From the sequence record PQ368571: DNA of 64,000 nucleotides; one strand, written 5' to 3'. Made by a program: the position numbers and the translations under genes. This document shows positions 30,678-44,845 of this stretch, one piece after another. The notes beneath the pieces were generated by a model. The model worked only from the letters and a program-made list of their open reading frames with translations, did not search any database and had not been told where the DNA came from. Origin of the DNA: Escherichia phage ELT3. Every line of letters begins with the position of its first letter. Within the stretch, counting starts at the first letter, position 1.

Positions 30678-31184
30678 ATGTTGTCACAAACTTACATGCA
30701 GATCGCCTATCTGATCGCAAAGAACTCTAAATGTGTTTCGTGGAAGGTAGGCGCACTGATCGAAAAAGACGGGCGAATCATTTCTACTGGATTTAACGGA
30801 ACTCCAGCAGGGCAAGTAAATTGTAGCTGTCATGCACATAAAAACGGTTGGCTGGATGATGACGGCAAAATGATCCCAGAAAAACGACCAGAGCATAGTG
30901 CATGGTCACAGAAAAACGAGATCCATGCTGAATTAAATGCTATTTTGTTTGCTGCCCGTAGCGGTGTATCGATTGAAGGCGCTAGTATGTGGTGTACTGC
31001 TTCACCGTGTCCAGATTGCGCTAAAGCAATTGCAAACAGTGGTATTAAACATCTATACTATTGCGACACATATGATCGAAATGGTGGGCGTGATTGGGCT
31101 GATATTCTGAATAATGCAGATATTACGATCACGCGTATTCCAAAAGCATTATTGACTGATTTGAAGGGTATTGATAATGACTGA
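30678..31184 (+). CDS. cd: dCMP deaminase
   Basis: Cytidine/dCMP deaminase zinc motifs (HAELNAI and SPCPDCAKAI); synteny between pseT and gene 31. Confidence 0.85.
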   Translation: MLSQTYMQIAYLIAKNSKCVSWKVGALIEKDGRIISTGFNGTPAGQVNCSCHAHKNGWLDDDGKMIPEKRPEHSAWSQKNEIHAELNAILFAARSGVSIEGASMWCTASPCPDCAKAIANSGIKHLYYCDTYDRNGGRDWADILNNADITITRIPKALLTDLKGIDND

Positions 31185-31491
31185 ACAAGTTGATAATATC
31201 GCACTTCGTGAAGCACTAAAGAAAATGTTTTCGGTCGGTACTCACTCTTTGCAGTTTACTAAGAAAGATGGTACTGTCCGTGAGATGATCGCCACGCGAG
31301 ATCCGGCACTGATGCCGTTTGAAACATACGAAAAGTGGTTAGTTCCGAATGTTGAAAAACCGCGTAAAGAATCAGAAACATCTTTGCCAGTATATGAAAT
31401 TGCAGTTGAAGGTTTCCGTAGTTTTGGGCTTGATAGTCTGATTAATGTAGACGGGCTGACTCCAGCGCAGATCGTCGAAATTTATAAATAA
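31171..31491 (+). CDS. hypothetical protein (106 aa)
   Basis: ORF overlapping the cd stop. Confidence 0.45.
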   Translation: MIMTEQVDNIALREALKKMFSVGTHSLQFTKKDGTVREMIATRDPALMPFETYEKWLVPNVEKPRKESETSLPVYEIAVEGFRSFGLDSLINVDGLTPAQIVEIYK

Positions 31492-31867: not shown

Positions 31868-31896
31868 GGCGGGAAATAATCCCGCCTATATTTTGG
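31868..31896 (+). terminator. Intrinsic terminator after gene 31
   Basis: ggcgggaaataatcccgcc hairpin followed by a T-rich tract. Confidence 0.55.
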
Positions 31897-31939: not shown

Positions 31940-32104
31940 ATGAAAACTATGAATGTAAACATCCACGAAATCCATACCGAAGTATTCACCGAAGAAGACC
32001 AGTTTGGTGTACGGGTAAACCCTCATTCGATTACTATCGATATTCCTAATGACGATTATGATCCGTTCTCTCTGATTAGCGAGATTAGTTTCAATGACTT
32101 CTGA
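31940..32104 (+). CDS. hypothetical small protein (54 aa)
   Basis: ORF with RBS; overlaps the next start. Confidence 0.35.
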   Translation: MKTMNVNIHEIHTEVFTEEDQFGVRVNPHSITIDIPNDDYDPFSLISEISFNDF

Positions 32105-32573
32105 AATTGATATCTATGCGGGTGGACCTTATCCATCGGGTGAATTGAGTAATTTCAATAAAAGACCATTCCGTCTATTTGGTTGCGATATTAACAGCAC
32201 AGAAGGATTTTTACAGGGGCTAAGATTTAAGAACCCTCAGAGACAAAGAGAAATCTTTTTGATGCACGGTGGCAAAGCAAAAAGAACCGGAAGAACTGAA
32301 AAGATTGAGAATAACATGTTATATTTTCAGGGTCGCCCGATTCATCGAATGAGTGAGCATTATTACAGACTGGCACATCTGGCATTTGTTACGATGGCAC
32401 GGAATAACCCAGAATTTTGTAAAGCATTACTCTCTACCGGAAATAAGAAATTACGTCATAGCATAGGTGGAACTGATCCGTTAAAGACTATATTGACTGA
32501 ATCGGAATTTTGTAGTATCCTCAATGATATTCGTGAACGTTTAACAAAACGAGGTGAAAATGTCAATTCTTAA
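32094..32573 (+). CDS. NADAR (YbiA-like, DUF1768) domain protein
   Basis: GELSNFNKRPF...GCDINSTEGFLQGLRF and ...NPEFCKALLSTGNKKL resemble the YbiA/NADAR core motifs as recalled. Confidence 0.55.
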   Translation: MTSEIDIYAGGPYPSGELSNFNKRPFRLFGCDINSTEGFLQGLRFKNPQRQREIFLMHGGKAKRTGRTEKIENNMLYFQGRPIHRMSEHYYRLAHLAFVTMARNNPEFCKALLSTGNKKLRHSIGGTDPLKTILTESEFCSILNDIRERLTKRGENVNS

Positions 32574-34056
32574 TATCATTAATCAGCTTGCAGCAACAGA
32601 CAAAACATCGCTGAAAGAAAAGATTCTGAAAGAATCCGCGAGCAATGAAACGCTGAAAGAATGCTTTTATCTGGCATATTGCAAACAGGTTACGTTTGGC
32701 GTAAAGAAATACGATAAACCGTCTCGCTATTCGTCTGTATTGTCTTTATCCGGTGCATTACAGGTCTTTAAAAATAAACTTGCCACGCGTCAAGTAACTG
32801 GTAATGCAGCATTACAGCTAGTTACCGATACTCTGACTTGCTTGTCAGAAGATGATGCTAAAGTTGCAATGATGGTCCTGAATCGTGATCTGGAATGTGG
32901 TTGTTCCGCTACTACTGCAAACAAGGTATGGAAGAAACTGATCCCCCAGCAGCCGTGCCACCTTGCATCGTCATGTTCTGATAAGACTATTGCTAATATC
33001 AAGTATCCGGCGTATGCACAACTTAAAAGCGATGGCGCTCGTGGTATGGCTGATATTGACGGGGAAACATTAGCAATCTATACCCGCTCAGGTAATACCT
33101 ATCAAGGGCTTGATGATTTGTTTGCGGTTTTAGAGCGTCTACGAGGACGTGGAATTGTTCTAGATGGCGAATTGGTATATATGCCTACCCTTTCGCAAAC
33201 ACCAGCGCAGAACTTCGTTGAAAGCGTTTATGATGGTACTCTGTCATGGATATTTGAAGAAGAGGAAATGCCATTAACGCCAGTAGCGGAAGCAGTGAAA
33301 GAATCCGTTGTTGCAGATCGTCAGACCGGAAATGGTATCCTCAACAAATCACTTAAAGGAACTATTCCAAAAGAAGAAGCCCAATGTATTGTTTACACTG
33401 TCTGGGATGTTATCGACCGTGATGTGTATTACGGAAACGAGAAAGCAACGAAGCAATATAAAGATCGATTCGAAGAACTAAAACAGATTGTTGAAGAACT
33501 TAACGATCCTCGTGTTCAGATCATCGAAAACACTGTAGTTAACAATATCGATGAAGCTCGCGAAGTATATCATCGTTATGTCAACATGGGCTTAGAAGGT
33601 ATTATCCTTAAAAATTTACATGGTGTATTTGAAGATCGCCGTAGTAAAGATCAGGTTAAATTTAAAGAAGTGATTGACTTCGACGCGGAAATTGTTGATG
33701 TATATCCGCATAGTAAAGACCCCAATAAGGTAGGCGGTTTTACTGTCCGTAGTGCGTGCGGACGAATGATGACTAACACCGGATCGGGATTAACCGACAC
33801 TACAACCGAAAAAGGTGATGATGGTACTGAACGTGTAATTCCGTTCGATCGTCGAAATGAACTCGACCGAGAAATGTTATGGGCTGACCGTCATAACCTG
33901 ATTGGAAAAGTTATTGAGATGACATGCAACGGGTATATCCGCAGCAAATCACGTAAAGAAGATGAACCGGAGTTCTCTTTATTTCTCCCGATCATCAAAC
34001 GTATTCGATACGACAAGACCACTGCAAATACAGTAAAAGAGGTATTCGATGTGTGA
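32554..34056 (+). CDS. 30: ATP-dependent DNA ligase
   Basis: 500 aa; similarity to T4 ligase as recalled (TGNAA, MMVLNRDLECG, adenylation motif AQLKSDGAR, DGELVY, LEGIILKN, FLPI..R.R.DKT.ANT). Confidence 0.9.
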   Translation: MKMSILNIINQLAATDKTSLKEKILKESASNETLKECFYLAYCKQVTFGVKKYDKPSRYSSVLSLSGALQVFKNKLATRQVTGNAALQLVTDTLTCLSEDDAKVAMMVLNRDLECGCSATTANKVWKKLIPQQPCHLASSCSDKTIANIKYPAYAQLKSDGARGMADIDGETLAIYTRSGNTYQGLDDLFAVLERLRGRGIVLDGELVYMPTLSQTPAQNFVESVYDGTLSWIFEEEEMPLTPVAEAVKESVVADRQTGNGILNKSLKGTIPKEEAQCIVYTVWDVIDRDVYYGNEKATKQYKDRFEELKQIVEELNDPRVQIIENTVVNNIDEAREVYHRYVNMGLEGIILKNLHGVFEDRRSKDQVKFKEVIDFDAEIVDVYPHSKDPNKVGGFTVRSACGRMMTNTGSGLTDTTTEKGDDGTERVIPFDRRNELDREMLWADRHNLIGKVIEMTCNGYIRSKSRKEDEPEFSLFLPIIKRIRYDKTTANTVKEVFDV

Positions 34057-34525
34057 TAATGAAGGGGCGAAAGCCCCTAAACCTAAAAAAATGTCAAAGA
34101 AAGAGCAACGCCAGATCCTGAAAATGAAATATGGTGGACGTTGTGCCTATTGTGGCGAGGAACTAGGGGATCGCTGGCACGCAGACCACATCAAACCAGT
34201 ATTGCGACGCTCAAAAGTAGTCTATGATGAAAATGGACGAATTGCCCGTAATGATGATGGATCGTGGAAGTATAAGGTTGTAGGAATGCATAAACCGGAA
34301 CATGATATACTTGATAACATGAATCCGTCGTGTGTGCAATGCAATCTTTATAAAAGCTGTATGGGCTTAGAATACTGGCGTAAGTGTATACGCGAGAACT
34401 TCCAGAAATACATTCAGCGCAATATGGGGTTGCGAGCGGCTAAACGCTTTGGCTTACTGTCAATCCACGACCAGCCAGTAGAATTTTATTTCGAAAAGTA
34501 TGAGCGCGAGCATCAAGAAAAATAA
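34049..34525 (+). CDS. HNH endonuclease
   Basis: CAYCG...HADHIKP...N...CVQCN HNH/zinc-finger signature; start may be the internal Met (MSKKEQ). Confidence 0.6.
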   Translation: MCDNEGAKAPKPKKMSKKEQRQILKMKYGGRCAYCGEELGDRWHADHIKPVLRRSKVVYDENGRIARNDDGSWKYKVVGMHKPEHDILDNMNPSCVQCNLYKSCMGLEYWRKCIRENFQKYIQRNMGLRAAKRFGLLSIHDQPVEFYFEKYEREHQEK

Positions 34526-40442: not shown

Positions 40443-40771
40443 TGAGATTGTTTAAGTATTCGCTAACGTCAAATTACGATAAACAAGGTCATTGCATCCG
40501 TTGCCCTGATTGTCATAGCCATAACATCGAAAGCAAGATCACCGATCATATTGATGGACTTTGGTCGCCAGCAAGTGAAATAGAATACTATTGCGCTGAT
40601 TGTGGAATTGTAGTAGCATATTGGGCATACGGATCATATGATCCATACTTCCAGATGGGAGAGCGTTCAATCCCTGCTCTTATCTGGAGAATTAAGAACA
40701 ACATCCGCCATTCATGGGATGAGTTCTTAAAAGATATTGATTTACGTGATGATCCATTCAGGAGACTATAA
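40442..40771 (+). CDS. zinc-ribbon protein (109 aa)
   Basis: CIRCPDC...CADCG paired CxxC motifs. Confidence 0.45.
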   Translation: MRLFKYSLTSNYDKQGHCIRCPDCHSHNIESKITDHIDGLWSPASEIEYYCADCGIVVAYWAYGSYDPYFQMGERSIPALIWRIKNNIRHSWDEFLKDIDLRDDPFRRL

Positions 40772-40772
40772 C

Positions 40773-41291
40773 ATGAACCGTTTAACGCCTAAACGCCGTT
40801 ACTATACCAATACTAAAAACTTTGTCATCTCTGTTTATGATGCATGGTTAGAAGATGGCTATATCAACATGAACCCAGATTATCAGCGTCCTTTAGTATG
40901 GGACACCGAAAACAAACGTATGTTTATCGAAAACCTGATTAATGATTTTCCGGTTGGTGCTATCGCAATGGCTAAGATTGATGATGGCTCTCGCTATGAG
41001 ATCGAAATCGTGGACGGTAAACAGCGTTTAAACGCAATATTCTCCTTTATGAAGGATGAGTTTAGCATTGCTTGTAATGATGATTCTATGTTGTATTACA
41101 GTGATTTTACGCCAGCAGAAAAGCGACGTTTCCGAAATCTCGGACTACCCGCGATCATGATGGAAGAGAGCACACGAGAAGACCGATTAGAGTATTTCTA
41201 CAAAACAAACTTTTTCGGTGTGCCTCAATCGGAAGAACATCGCCAGCATGTGATTGCCCTATTGCAAGATGAGCAATTAAAAAATAACTAA
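40773..41291 (+). CDS. DUF262 (ParB/Srx-like NTPase domain) protein
   Basis: DYQRPLVW and IVDGKQRLNAI motifs (DUF262 hallmarks (Y)QR..VW and DGQQR). Confidence 0.5.
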   Translation: MNRLTPKRRYYTNTKNFVISVYDAWLEDGYINMNPDYQRPLVWDTENKRMFIENLINDFPVGAIAMAKIDDGSRYEIEIVDGKQRLNAIFSFMKDEFSIACNDDSMLYYSDFTPAEKRRFRNLGLPAIMMEESTREDRLEYFYKTNFFGVPQSEEHRQHVIALLQDEQLKNN

Positions 41292-41890: not shown

Positions 41891-43942
41891 ATGTTTAACT
41901 TAGAAATCGACGATCTAATGATTGAATCTTTCGAGAAATGGCTGTTGACGGAAGAGGAAGAAAACTTTGGCAGTATTGCTCCGGTACAGTGCTTAAAGCC
42001 TAAGCAGAATCCTAAACAGCTTTTTGCAGTACAGACACGCGATAAAGATGTGATTGTCCGTCTTTGTAACTTCACCAACAAAACACCTAAAATCATTCGT
42101 ATGGGTGACAAGACCGCACATGTTGTACTGTGCGAAATGAACAAAAGCGGTCGTATTGTACAGCTTAAAAATGGTCTAGGCGATAACCCGATTGCAGTTA
42201 TGGCAAGTGCTTTTGATGTGGTTATGGAAACAGCCCGTAAAGCGCAATTAGACGCTGTTATGTTCCGTTTTAACGTATCCCGCATGAAAGGTAAGACCGA
42301 ACTGGTTAAGCGCGTTATAGAGCGTTTGGTGCGTCGTACACCGAAGTTTGAAGTATTCCAGCAGGAAGTAATGACCAGCAAAAAGATCGCTTTAGTTGTT
42401 GTCAAGCGTCGCGGGATGGCGATTGATAAGATTAAAGGGATTAAACTTGATGAATCCTTGTTCACTAAAGTAGAAAGTGATTTAGGTGATCGCTGGGTAT
42501 CTAAGGCTACTGGTGAATCTCTGACTAAAGATGAGGCGTATGCGGCTAGTCTTGTGTCAGAAGAAGAACGAAACGCGGAAGCAGAACAACGCGTAGCGGC
42601 TAAATCTCGTTTGACTAAAGAAGAAATGCTGAAAACTCAAGCGACCTATAACAGCGACTACGTGAATCATCCAGAAAAAATTAATCTTAAACCGGAAGAA
42701 GATATCACCGAAGCAGAACCTAAGAAACAGTTTAATACTCTGATTGACCGTCAAGCCTTAGAACGTTCAACCGCCCGTTCTCTGAATGACTGGACAAGTG
42801 ATATTATCACTCGCTATGGTTTCATGCGTACTATTTTTGAAAGCGAAGCCGATGCAAAATACGCAGTAAGCGAACTGGTAAAAGTTCAGGATCAATATGA
42901 TCCGTTGTCTGCGGAAGTTATCGCAGCATCAATCAAACGCTTAAAAGAAATCATGAGCGAGGAAGTATTTGAAAACAAGATCACCGCCCTGGCAATGGAT
43001 CGAGTAGACCAGTCTATGCCAGCAGATGTAAAAGCTGAAATGCTGCGTAGTCATATCACCCAGATTAAAACCGATGCCCTTCGTAATGTTGCGTCCGGTA
43101 TGTTTGAAGCAATTGCTAGCAACATGGGTGAAATGATGGCAGATATTGATCTTGATCTGCCGGGCGCGGAAGGTTTTGTGTTGAGCGAATATGCCGATGC
43201 AGCATACATCAATATGAACAACTTCCTAACTGATCGCAAGCTGGAAGAGTTTGAGGGAATCGCAGATCCAGAAGAATTGGTCAAGATGTGCGATGCACTG
43301 GATAATGCCTTCTCTAACTATGGTGTTAAACTTGATCCGGGTACTATTCTGTATCGTGGTATGGACTTCCGGTCGCAAATGTGGGAAACTGCACGTAAGC
43401 AAAAAGCGTTTTACTTTAAAAACTATGTGAGCACTTCCCTTGCACCTAACATTTTTGGTGGCTGGAATGCAAACGTGGCTAGTGCCATTGCTGGTGTTGA
43501 TTCTATGGCTGGCTCTCGCGGTGAAGGTGGCGCTAATGTTGCTTTCTCCATTGCTGGCGCGGAAAACATCCCTGTATTGCCAGTAGGTAACAAAGCATTT
43601 GCTTACAAAGAATGCGAGATTTTACTTCCTCGCGGTGTTGTGTTATCCTTTGATACGGTAACTCGTGCTACTGCATCGACGGATTCACAAGAAACTTATT
43701 ACATCGAGGCACATATTATGAACAAAAATGAACTGGCAGCATTACAAGAATCTGGCGAGATGATCGCGGACGGCGATGCATTCATCCGTGAAGGTGTTGT
43801 TAAACCTGCTTCTGACCTGTCTTTCTCCAGATTTATTACCGAAGCTAAAACCGAACGTAAGAAAGCAGATAAGGCAACTCTACGTCAGCTTATCGCTGAT
43901 CTGGTATCTGTAGACGCAATGCCAGATAAATTTAAAATGTAA
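41891..43942 (+). CDS. alt: ADP-ribosyltransferase Alt (packaged RNA polymerase-modifying enzyme)
   Basis: 683 aa (T4 Alt is about 682 aa); ART motifs YRG, STS (YVSTSLAP), ExE (ECEILLPRG); similarity to T4 Alt as recalled (LFTKVES.LGD, FYFKNYVSTSL.PNIFGGW). Confidence 0.85.
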   Translation: MFNLEIDDLMIESFEKWLLTEEEENFGSIAPVQCLKPKQNPKQLFAVQTRDKDVIVRLCNFTNKTPKIIRMGDKTAHVVLCEMNKSGRIVQLKNGLGDNPIAVMASAFDVVMETARKAQLDAVMFRFNVSRMKGKTELVKRVIERLVRRTPKFEVFQQEVMTSKKIALVVVKRRGMAIDKIKGIKLDESLFTKVESDLGDRWVSKATGESLTKDEAYAASLVSEEERNAEAEQRVAAKSRLTKEEMLKTQATYNSDYVNHPEKINLKPEEDITEAEPKKQFNTLIDRQALERSTARSLNDWTSDIITRYGFMRTIFESEADAKYAVSELVKVQDQYDPLSAEVIAASIKRLKEIMSEEVFENKITALAMDRVDQSMPADVKAEMLRSHITQIKTDALRNVASGMFEAIASNMGEMMADIDLDLPGAEGFVLSEYADAAYINMNNFLTDRKLEEFEGIADPEELVKMCDALDNAFSNYGVKLDPGTILYRGMDFRSQMWETARKQKAFYFKNYVSTSLAPNIFGGWNANVASAIAGVDSMAGSRGEGGANVAFSIAGAENIPVLPVGNKAFAYKECEILLPRGVVLSFDTVTRATASTDSQETYYIEAHIMNKNELAALQESGEMIADGDAFIREGVVKPASDLSFSRFITEAKTERKKADKATLRQLIADLVSVDAMPDKFKM

Positions 43943-44020: not shown

Positions 44021-44845
44021 ATGTTCAAGAAATTACAGGATTTTCGTCTTTCAGAAGAATCACGCGAATCAATGATGGAACGTATGGATAATTACATCGA
44101 AACATATGACATTGAGGGGATTAATGGTTACATGATCACTGAGATGATCAGCGATCAGATTAACTTTGATGATTATGTGAAGGTTATCCGCTTCCTTGAG
44201 CGTGAGACACAAGATTATGGATTTGTCAAGAAAATCATTAATGTGATGTATGAAGTACACTCCGAAGACTTTGGAGATAATGTATTCAAACATTACAAAC
44301 ATAACAACATAACCCCAGCAGAATATAATGCAATCTGTGATTATGTGTCTGAACAATACGAATGGGTAAATGGTGCTCTCTTAGGGGAAGAAGACATGAC
44401 CGATGAGATATCAGAGATTGTTGATTTGATGGATTGCGTCATGGATAAAACCGAAAAGTTAAACGGTACTCTTTATCGCGGTCAACATCTTGACATTCAG
44501 ACAATAGAGCGTATTATTGAAGATAAGGAGTTTACCTTTAAAAACTTTGTATCTACCAGCATGACACCGATCATCTTTGGAGGATGGCTATCAAACAGCA
44601 CTAGCCTTTATTGTGAGAATCGATATGAATCAATGACCGGAAAGATGCAACATTCTTGTAATGTATCATGGGTAATTGACGTAAAAGATCATAAAGGTTT
44701 TGTTGTTGGGTCAATTGCATGGAACCCTTGCGAATGTGAAGTAATTTTACCGCGCGGGACTTGCGTCAAGGTAAACGACGTAGTAGAATCTTTCGGCGAT
44801 GAGAATCGTAGACAATTTACAATTTTCGGTGAGGTGACTAAATGA
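44021..44845 (+). CDS. second ADP-ribosyltransferase (Alt/Mod family)
   Basis: R-S-E triad motifs LYRG, FVSTSMTP, CECEVILPRG, paralogous to the Alt C-terminal domain. Confidence 0.7.
   Translation: MFKKLQDFRLSEESRESMMERMDNYIETYDIEGINGYMITEMISDQINFDDYVKVIRFLERETQDYGFVKKIINVMYEVHSEDFGDNVFKHYKHNNITPAEYNAICDYVSEQYEWVNGALLGEEDMTDEISEIVDLMDCVMDKTEKLNGTLYRGQHLDIQTIERIIEDKEFTFKNFVSTSMTPIIFGGWLSNSTSLYCENRYESMTGKMQHSCNVSWVIDVKDHKGFVVGSIAWNPCECEVILPRGTCVKVNDVVESFGDENRRQFTIFGEVTK

Follow-up and report, generated by a model that had tools for sequence, protein, structure and literature searches.

The E. coli protein YbiA (2B3W) is an N-glycosidase of riboflavin intermediates. Among phages, gene 30.3 of T4 has been renamed adfN (anti-DarT factor NADAR) by Johannesman et al., who found that its product, AdfN, does not bind DarT1 (PMC11825919). 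Purified T4 AdfN strips ADP-ribose from DarT1-modified DNA and the substitution E36A abolishes this removal in vitro; in vivo, rescue is only partial with E36A or K43A, and it is also reduced when the last helix is cut off, as happens naturally in RB69 (PMC11825919). T4 ΔadfN is sensitive to DarTG1, and AdfN does not counter DarTG2 (PMC11825919). In a transposon screen, T4 30.3 could be disrupted without harm on K-12; on DarTG1 hosts it was essential, and insertions in the gene were lost (bioRxiv 10.1101/2025.11.20.689424). The protein acts on guanine-ADP-ribose (G-ADPr), but neither on T-ADPr (PMC11125620) nor on C-ADPr (PMC12945103). In uninfected cells T4 AdfN gives no rescue from DarT1 toxicity, and it performs poorly for phages outside the Tevenvirinae; its full function is seen only in T-even infection, so that a possible phage partner has been suggested (PMC11825919). 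The NADARs of T4-like phages were described by Iyer et al. as early genes, expressed along with ADP-ribosyltransferases (ARTs; PMC9503650). The branches of the superfamily differ in their last β-strand, which carries His in phage NADARs, Glu in YbiA-type proteins and Asp in DarG1-type proteins (PMC11125620, PMC11543638, PMC11825919, PMC12945103).

We analysed a window of 64,000 nucleotides from Escherichia phage ELT3 (PQ368571). About 59 Krischvirus genomes, RB49, MIZ6 and kaaroe among them, match a 4-kb stretch around its 30.3 gene with 98-99% DNA identity, and the ELT3 DNA is accordingly assigned to Krischvirus, i.e., to the RB49-like T4-type coliphages of the Straboviridae. The genes that bear on the present analysis are as follows.

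31940-32104, plus strand: 54-aa ORF of unknown function (phrog_15277, E=2e-40), RB49p215 in RB49.
32094-32573 (stop codon included), plus strand: gene 30.3, adfN ortholog, predicted phage-type NADAR of 159 aa; ORF running from ATG to TAA.
32560-34056, plus strand: gene 30, ATP-dependent DNA ligase (PF01068, E=2.8e-22; phrog_114, E=1e-141).
41891-43942, plus strand: Alt-like ADP-ribosyltransferase of 683 aa (PF03496, E=1.9e-9), equivalent to RB49 alt.
44021-44845, plus strand: second, short Alt-like ADP-ribosyltransferase of 274 aa (PF03496, E=4.3e-16), equivalent to RB49p183.

The translation of the 159-aa ORF contains all three motifs on which the initial annotation had built its NADAR assignment (GELSNFNKRPF, STEGFLQGLRF and ALLSTGNKKL), and the matches to PF08010 and PHROG 652 described below, together with homologues in 1509 phage records (tblastn), show that this is no chance ORF. 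The neighbouring genes had likewise been named correctly: the adjacent gene matches DNA ligase profiles, and both downstream genes, starting at 41891 and 44021, match the ADP-ribosyltransferase family PF03496. Gene 30.3 is present in a single copy, the sole homolog of its kind within the window, and is tightly packed between its neighbours. The 54-aa ORF, which showed no similarity to T4 30.4 when the two were compared, overlaps the start of 30.3 by 11 nt, while the last 14 nt of 30.3 are shared with the ligase gene, whose ATG at 32560 is also the start annotated in RB49; the GAGG Shine-Dalgarno sequence of the ligase gene (32551-32554) likewise falls inside the 3' end of 30.3. A scan for promoters and terminators around 30.3 returned nothing above the shuffled expectation, and hence no dedicated promoter; a terminator-like hairpin lies 3' of gene 31 (31868-31886).

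On the plus strand the gene order reads pseT, cd.2, cd, 31.1, 31, small ORF, 30.3, 30, HNH endonuclease, small ORFs, alt and short Alt-like ART, after which baseplate and tail genes follow on the opposite strand. The position of 30.3 within the T4-type block cd, 31, 30.x, 30, alt is thus confirmed: the T4 order (pseT, cd, 31.1, 31, 30.3, 30, alt) is the same, except that T4 has 30.2 and 30.1 between 30.3 and 30. The direct contact between 30.3 and the ligase gene in ELT3 is therefore best explained as inherited T4-type synteny minus 30.1 and 30.2, and not as a specific functional pairing. An Acinetobacter T4-like phage has a single gene between the homolog and the ligase gene; Vibrio 1.081.O, RB43 and Aeromonas CC2, which are more distant T4-like phages, do not have the two side by side.

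Several other features of this neighbourhood deserve mention in their own right. An HNH endonuclease ORF (34049-34525, plus strand; PF01844; phrog_2118, E=3e-54) overlaps the ligase stop codon. Downstream of it the length varies among Krischvirus genomes, megablast matches being split in two and spanning 4.0-5.1 kb per 4.0-kb query, so that the stretch just behind the HNH ORF looks like a mobile or variable spot. Between the ligase gene and alt, a 184-aa ORF (40737-41291, plus strand) matches GmrSD_N (DUF262; PF03235, E=7e-20); its RB49 counterpart is annotated as hypothetical. The gp31.1 homolog (31171-31491, plus strand) carries a WYL_2 / SH3 β-barrel domain (PF10902, E=1.2e-9). It also has a weak match to a PHROG labelled 'tail fiber protein', which is probably why several deposited Krischvirus genomes bear this label here.

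The protein encoded by ELT3 30.3 matches PF08010 (Phage_30_3, 'Bacteriophage protein GP30.3') over its full length (E=1e-37, 129.5 bits against a cut-off of 36 bits; profile positions 2-138 of 138) and falls into phrog_652 (function unknown, E=3e-44). A word-indexed homolog search yielded only 7 proteins, whereas a profile search (HMMER) reached the family, with 941 representative clusters at 50% identity. Within it the Krischvirus branch is fairly isolated: one metagenomic relative (P0002) is 68% identical and the next representative 48% identical. In the RB49 record the gene is named 30.3 and its product 'hypothetical protein', as in most database records. Sequence and synteny together identify ELT3 30.3 as the Krischvirus ortholog of T4 30.3/adfN.

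The initial annotation had proposed a search against the NADAR profile PF08719 as a check on its assignment and the lack of a significant hit as grounds for rejecting it. ELT3 gp30.3 stays below the threshold of that profile (E=0.12, 13.1 bits; cut-off 35.1 bits). T4 gp30.3, a proven NADAR, gives no match to PF08719 whatever, so the score of this profile is not a valid test of phage NADARs and the proposed check was unsound. The phage NADAR branch sits in a Pfam family of its own, PF08010, which PF08719 does not cover, although some PF08010 members bridge to it through sub-threshold matches (P0126, E=1.2e-6). The PADLOC models were uninformative, as they matched neither ELT3 gp30.3 nor T4 AdfN.

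Two further candidate relationships were rejected. The NCBIfam model 'NADAR family anti-phage protein' DS32_2 scored 14 bits (E=0.018) against a cut-off of 240, which gives no membership. A single-sequence phmmer search linked residues 45-151 to the C-terminal subdomain of DltA (7vhv_D; E=3.3e-4), a kinship absent from family profiles and fold searches alike. The DltA likeness, with its faint NCBIfam echo, is coincidental and could lead automated annotation astray.

The link to NADAR comes from fold and profile comparisons. The AlphaFold2 model of ELT3 gp30.3 is of high confidence (mean pLDDT 91.9, pTM 0.87) and adopts the NADAR fold; in Foldseek searches three structures rank at the top and all others are noise, and against viral models gp30.3-like proteins score best (TM 0.87-0.94), with numerous NADAR-annotated proteins ranking next. 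We also aligned 32 family members and built a family profile from 53 sequences. YbiA was the best sequence match of this profile in the PDB (hmmsearch, E=6e-4), and hhalign aligned the profile with full-length E. coli YbiA over 134 columns (95.9% probability, E=5e-9). Membership of ELT3 gp30.3 in the NADAR superfamily (YbiA fold), as originally proposed, is thus well supported by the Foldseek ranking and the profile alignment, and the model portrays it as a stand-alone phage-type NADAR, a bare YbiA-fold core devoid of extensions.

The signature elements of the enzyme could be placed on the DNA as follows.

32202-32204, plus strand: codon GAA, Glu37; equivalent to the catalytic E36 of T4 AdfN and the Glu of YbiA 'SEHYFQ' (pairwise alignment, hhalign).
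32223-32225, plus strand: codon AGA, Arg44; at the place of the phosphate-coordinating Lys (T4 K43, E. coli C7 NADAR K95, PnNADAR K50; alignments).
32457-32459, plus strand: codon CAT, His122; phage-NADAR signature His of the last β-strand, within 'KKLRHSIGG'.
32499-32564, plus strand: C-terminal α-helix, residues 136-157 (DSSP on the AlphaFold2 model); absent in RB69, whose allele is inactive.

The initial annotation had named the absence of the conserved catalytic residues from a structural alignment as a second ground for rejection. In the alignments the catalytic Glu was found as E37 and the phage-specific His as H122, with Arg44 in place of the phosphate-binding Lys. Among 153 family representatives, 151 have Glu at the position of E37 and 149 have His at that of H122, which pairs with the Glu of YbiA 'KLVEH' in hhalign. 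The C-terminal helix is intact, the alignment with T4 AdfN reaching the last residue of the T4 protein. ELT3 gp30.3 further retains the family-conserved LSNF motif, Q41, Q51, G59, A62, R85, G125, T132, L134, T135 and E138.

By analogy with T4, ELT3 gp30.3 is very probably a guanine-ADP-ribose DNA hydrolase that counters DarTG1, its activity, specificity and phenotype all being transferred from AdfN; a point against this transfer is that the sole characterised member of PF08010 is only 38% identical. Another is the possible phage partner of T4 AdfN, which RB49-type phages may or may not supply; 30.1 and 30.2, the neighbours of adfN in T4, are missing between 30.3 and 30 in ELT3. The protein would be made from the co-directional non-structural block (cd, 31, 30, alt) and would bind ADP-ribose attached to the N2 of guanine in phage DNA, Glu37 and His122 flanking the distal ribose and Arg44 holding the diphosphate. 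Cleavage of the N-glycosidic bond would then release ADP-ribose and restore the base, so that the replication-blocking marks of DarT1 would be reversed and the phage could grow on DarTG1 hosts. The original suggestion of a counter-defence against DarT thus stands for DarTG1, by orthology to T4 AdfN. It does not extend to thymine-ADPr, the mark of DarT2, which lies outside the published activity; since that activity is confined to guanine-ADPr, with none on T-ADPr or C-ADPr (PMC11825919, PMC11125620, PMC12945103), the 'DarTG' of the initial annotation should read DarTG1.

Distant members of the family show a variety of domain and gene associations. A gp30.3-type NADAR is often fused to an NT5C 5'(3')-deoxyribonucleotidase (P0053 and about 100 similar proteins of about 322 aa), and some of these fusions are labelled Muribaculaceae or Prevotellaceae, on contigs of up to 596 kb. 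P0171 is a further case with such an association, and a calcineurin-like phosphoesterase is the fusion partner in one member. In Vibrio phage 1.081.O (L004:2501-4489), gp30.3, a 5' nucleotidase and a calcineurin-like phosphoesterase are encoded by consecutive separate genes. In Aeromonas phage CC2 (L006:2492-4133), a ribose-phosphate pyrophosphokinase is encoded two genes downstream of the gp30.3 homolog, an arrangement that fits earlier remarks placing phage NADARs near NAD/ADPr salvage genes. The recurring nucleotidase/phosphoesterase association may point to the downstream breakdown of released ADP-ribose or nucleotides.

Such associations raise the question of whether the main substrate could be something other than DNA, namely soluble ADP-ribose derivatives, ADP-ribosylated nucleotides or RNA (for example, host immune signals or toxin products), the reversal of DarT1 marks being a side activity. 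The NT5C and calcineurin-like phosphoesterase domains fused or adjacent to family members hint at nucleotide/ADPr metabolism, as does the pyrophosphokinase near the CC2 homolog, and the NADAR families tested to date also remove G-ADPr from RNA (PMC12945103). However, the fusions are limited to distant family members and are not seen in T4-like coliphages, and T4 adfN is dispensable on plain K-12 while being required on DarTG1 hosts (PMC11825919; bioRxiv 10.1101/2025.11.20.689424). We therefore consider a main substrate other than DNA to be very unlikely for ELT3 gp30.3.

Arg44 is the one notable departure of the ELT3 protein from T4 AdfN. A basic residue is retained at the position of T4 K43, as Arg; among the 153 diverged representatives 140 have Lys and 9 Arg here, and RB49, P0002 and the Acinetobacter T4-like phage MD-2021a likewise have Arg. 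Schuller et al. reported that the K95R variant of the C7 NADAR hydrolyses G-ADPr in vitro, yet gives no rescue from DarT1 toxicity in vivo (PMC11543638). Because R44 represents the same change as C7 K95R, which lost in vivo rescue, a lower efficiency of the ELT3 allele is possible. By this analogy R44 may be regarded as a tolerated natural variant, with a possible effect on efficiency. It is conceivable, albeit unlikely, that the K-to-R change common to Krischvirus and the Acinetobacter T4-like clade marks a sub-branch of AdfN with altered efficiency, substrate range or phage-partner dependence. Were this true, the R44 sub-branch would not be a simple copy of T4 AdfN, and could be tuned, for example, to a different DarT1 variant or to RNA/nucleotide G-ADPr.

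Taken further, the same substitution might be thought to yield an attenuated or inactive allele, in which case RB49-type phages would need other anti-DarT factors. The replacement of the T4 K43 equivalent and the loss of in vivo rescue in C7 K95R (PMC11543638) speak for such a reading, but the latter enzyme still hydrolyses G-ADPr in vitro (PMC11543638), the Arg recurs in 9 of the 153 diverged representatives as well as in the Acinetobacter T4-like clade, and ELT3 gp30.3 is full length and keeps every other conserved position. The same motifs recur in P0002, the relative with 68% identity, an argument for continued selection, and this conservation makes an inactive ELT3 allele highly improbable. 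The codons of ELT3 and RB49 30.3 differ at only 4 positions (1 synonymous and 3 non-synonymous), too few for a dN/dS estimate.

The idea that ELT3 gp30.3 reverses or tunes ADP-ribosylation by the Alt-type transferases of the phage itself, to which alt and the second ART lend themselves by lying on the same strand some 9-12 kb further downstream, is barely credible, as the annotation of T4 Alt is that of a mono-ADP-ribosyltransferase whose target, the host RNA polymerase, is a protein, the characterised NADAR activity is directed at N-glycosidic bonds to nucleobases (we found none on protein ADP-ribosylation in the literature consulted), and the co-location is plain conserved T4 gene order. The earlier proposal that the NADAR complements these two transferases thus reduces to their proximity. 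The short second ART is annotated in RB49 (RB49p183) as 'similar to C-terminal part of T4 Alt', and the matching place in T4, after the full-length alt, is occupied by alt.-1 and alt.-2, annotated remnants of a partial alt duplication.

Reading ELT3 gp30.3 as an anti-DarTG1 hydrolase opens no new biology: the family, fold, reaction and counter-defence role are already known and were published between 2012 and 2025, the counter-defence role in 2024-2025. By analogy with T4, an enzymatic counter to DarTG1 is probably encoded by an RB49-type phage; this can serve the annotation of 'hypothetical protein' records, and the identity of ELT3 30.3 helps to predict host range on DarTG1-bearing E. coli. 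A literature search for Krischvirus together with DarTG1 returned no publication treating both.

Among the described systems, E. coli YbiA is about 21% identical to ELT3 gp30.3 and carries Glu in place of His122 of the phage protein, so that the Glu defining the YbiA subfamily is not found in ELT3; ybiA is a chromosomal gene beside dinG, rhlE and ybiB, in an operon that is LexA-controlled according to PMC11125620. The DarG1-type NADAR antitoxins (E. coli C7, G. lovleyi 8BAT; BC4488 family) have Asp instead of His in the last strand and bear N-terminal extensions (219-234 aa), whereas ELT3 gp30.3 consists of the 159-aa core only. They are also encoded next to a DarT1 gene, while ELT3 30.3 is an orphan flanked by the 54-aa ORF and the ligase gene. 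All three hallmarks of the DarG1/BC4488 group (last-strand Asp, N-terminal extension and adjacent DarT1) are thus absent from ELT3. The DarG1-type NADARs rescue DarT1 toxicity without phage, unlike T4 AdfN in uninfected cells. AdfN-Bas32 and AdfN-Bas60, from T5-like and Vequintavirinae phages, resemble the present case in being phage-encoded NADARs that counter DarTG1 (PMC11825919). They nevertheless fall into separate NADAR branches of independent acquisition and do not depend on T-even infection (PMC11825919), and they show no PF08010-type kinship to ELT3 30.3.

Far closer is RB49 gp30.3 (NP_891785), which is 98% identical to the ELT3 protein (156 of 159 residues) and is encoded at the same position with the same overlaps with its neighbours; the three substitutions (N74H, A94V and S114A) all fall outside conserved positions. 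T4 AdfN itself differs from the ELT3 protein in having Lys43 where ELT3 has Arg44 and in lacking the nine extra C-terminal residues of the latter. At the gene level, ELT3 30.3 directly abuts the ligase gene (30.1 and 30.2 being absent), and the internal out-of-frame ORF 30.3' of T4 has no counterpart in ELT3. The two proteins nonetheless share 38% identity over 151 aa (E=7e-30), the same PF08010 family and bare core, the same signature Glu and last-strand His, an intact C-terminal helix and the same gene neighbourhood (cd, 31, 30.x, 30, alt).
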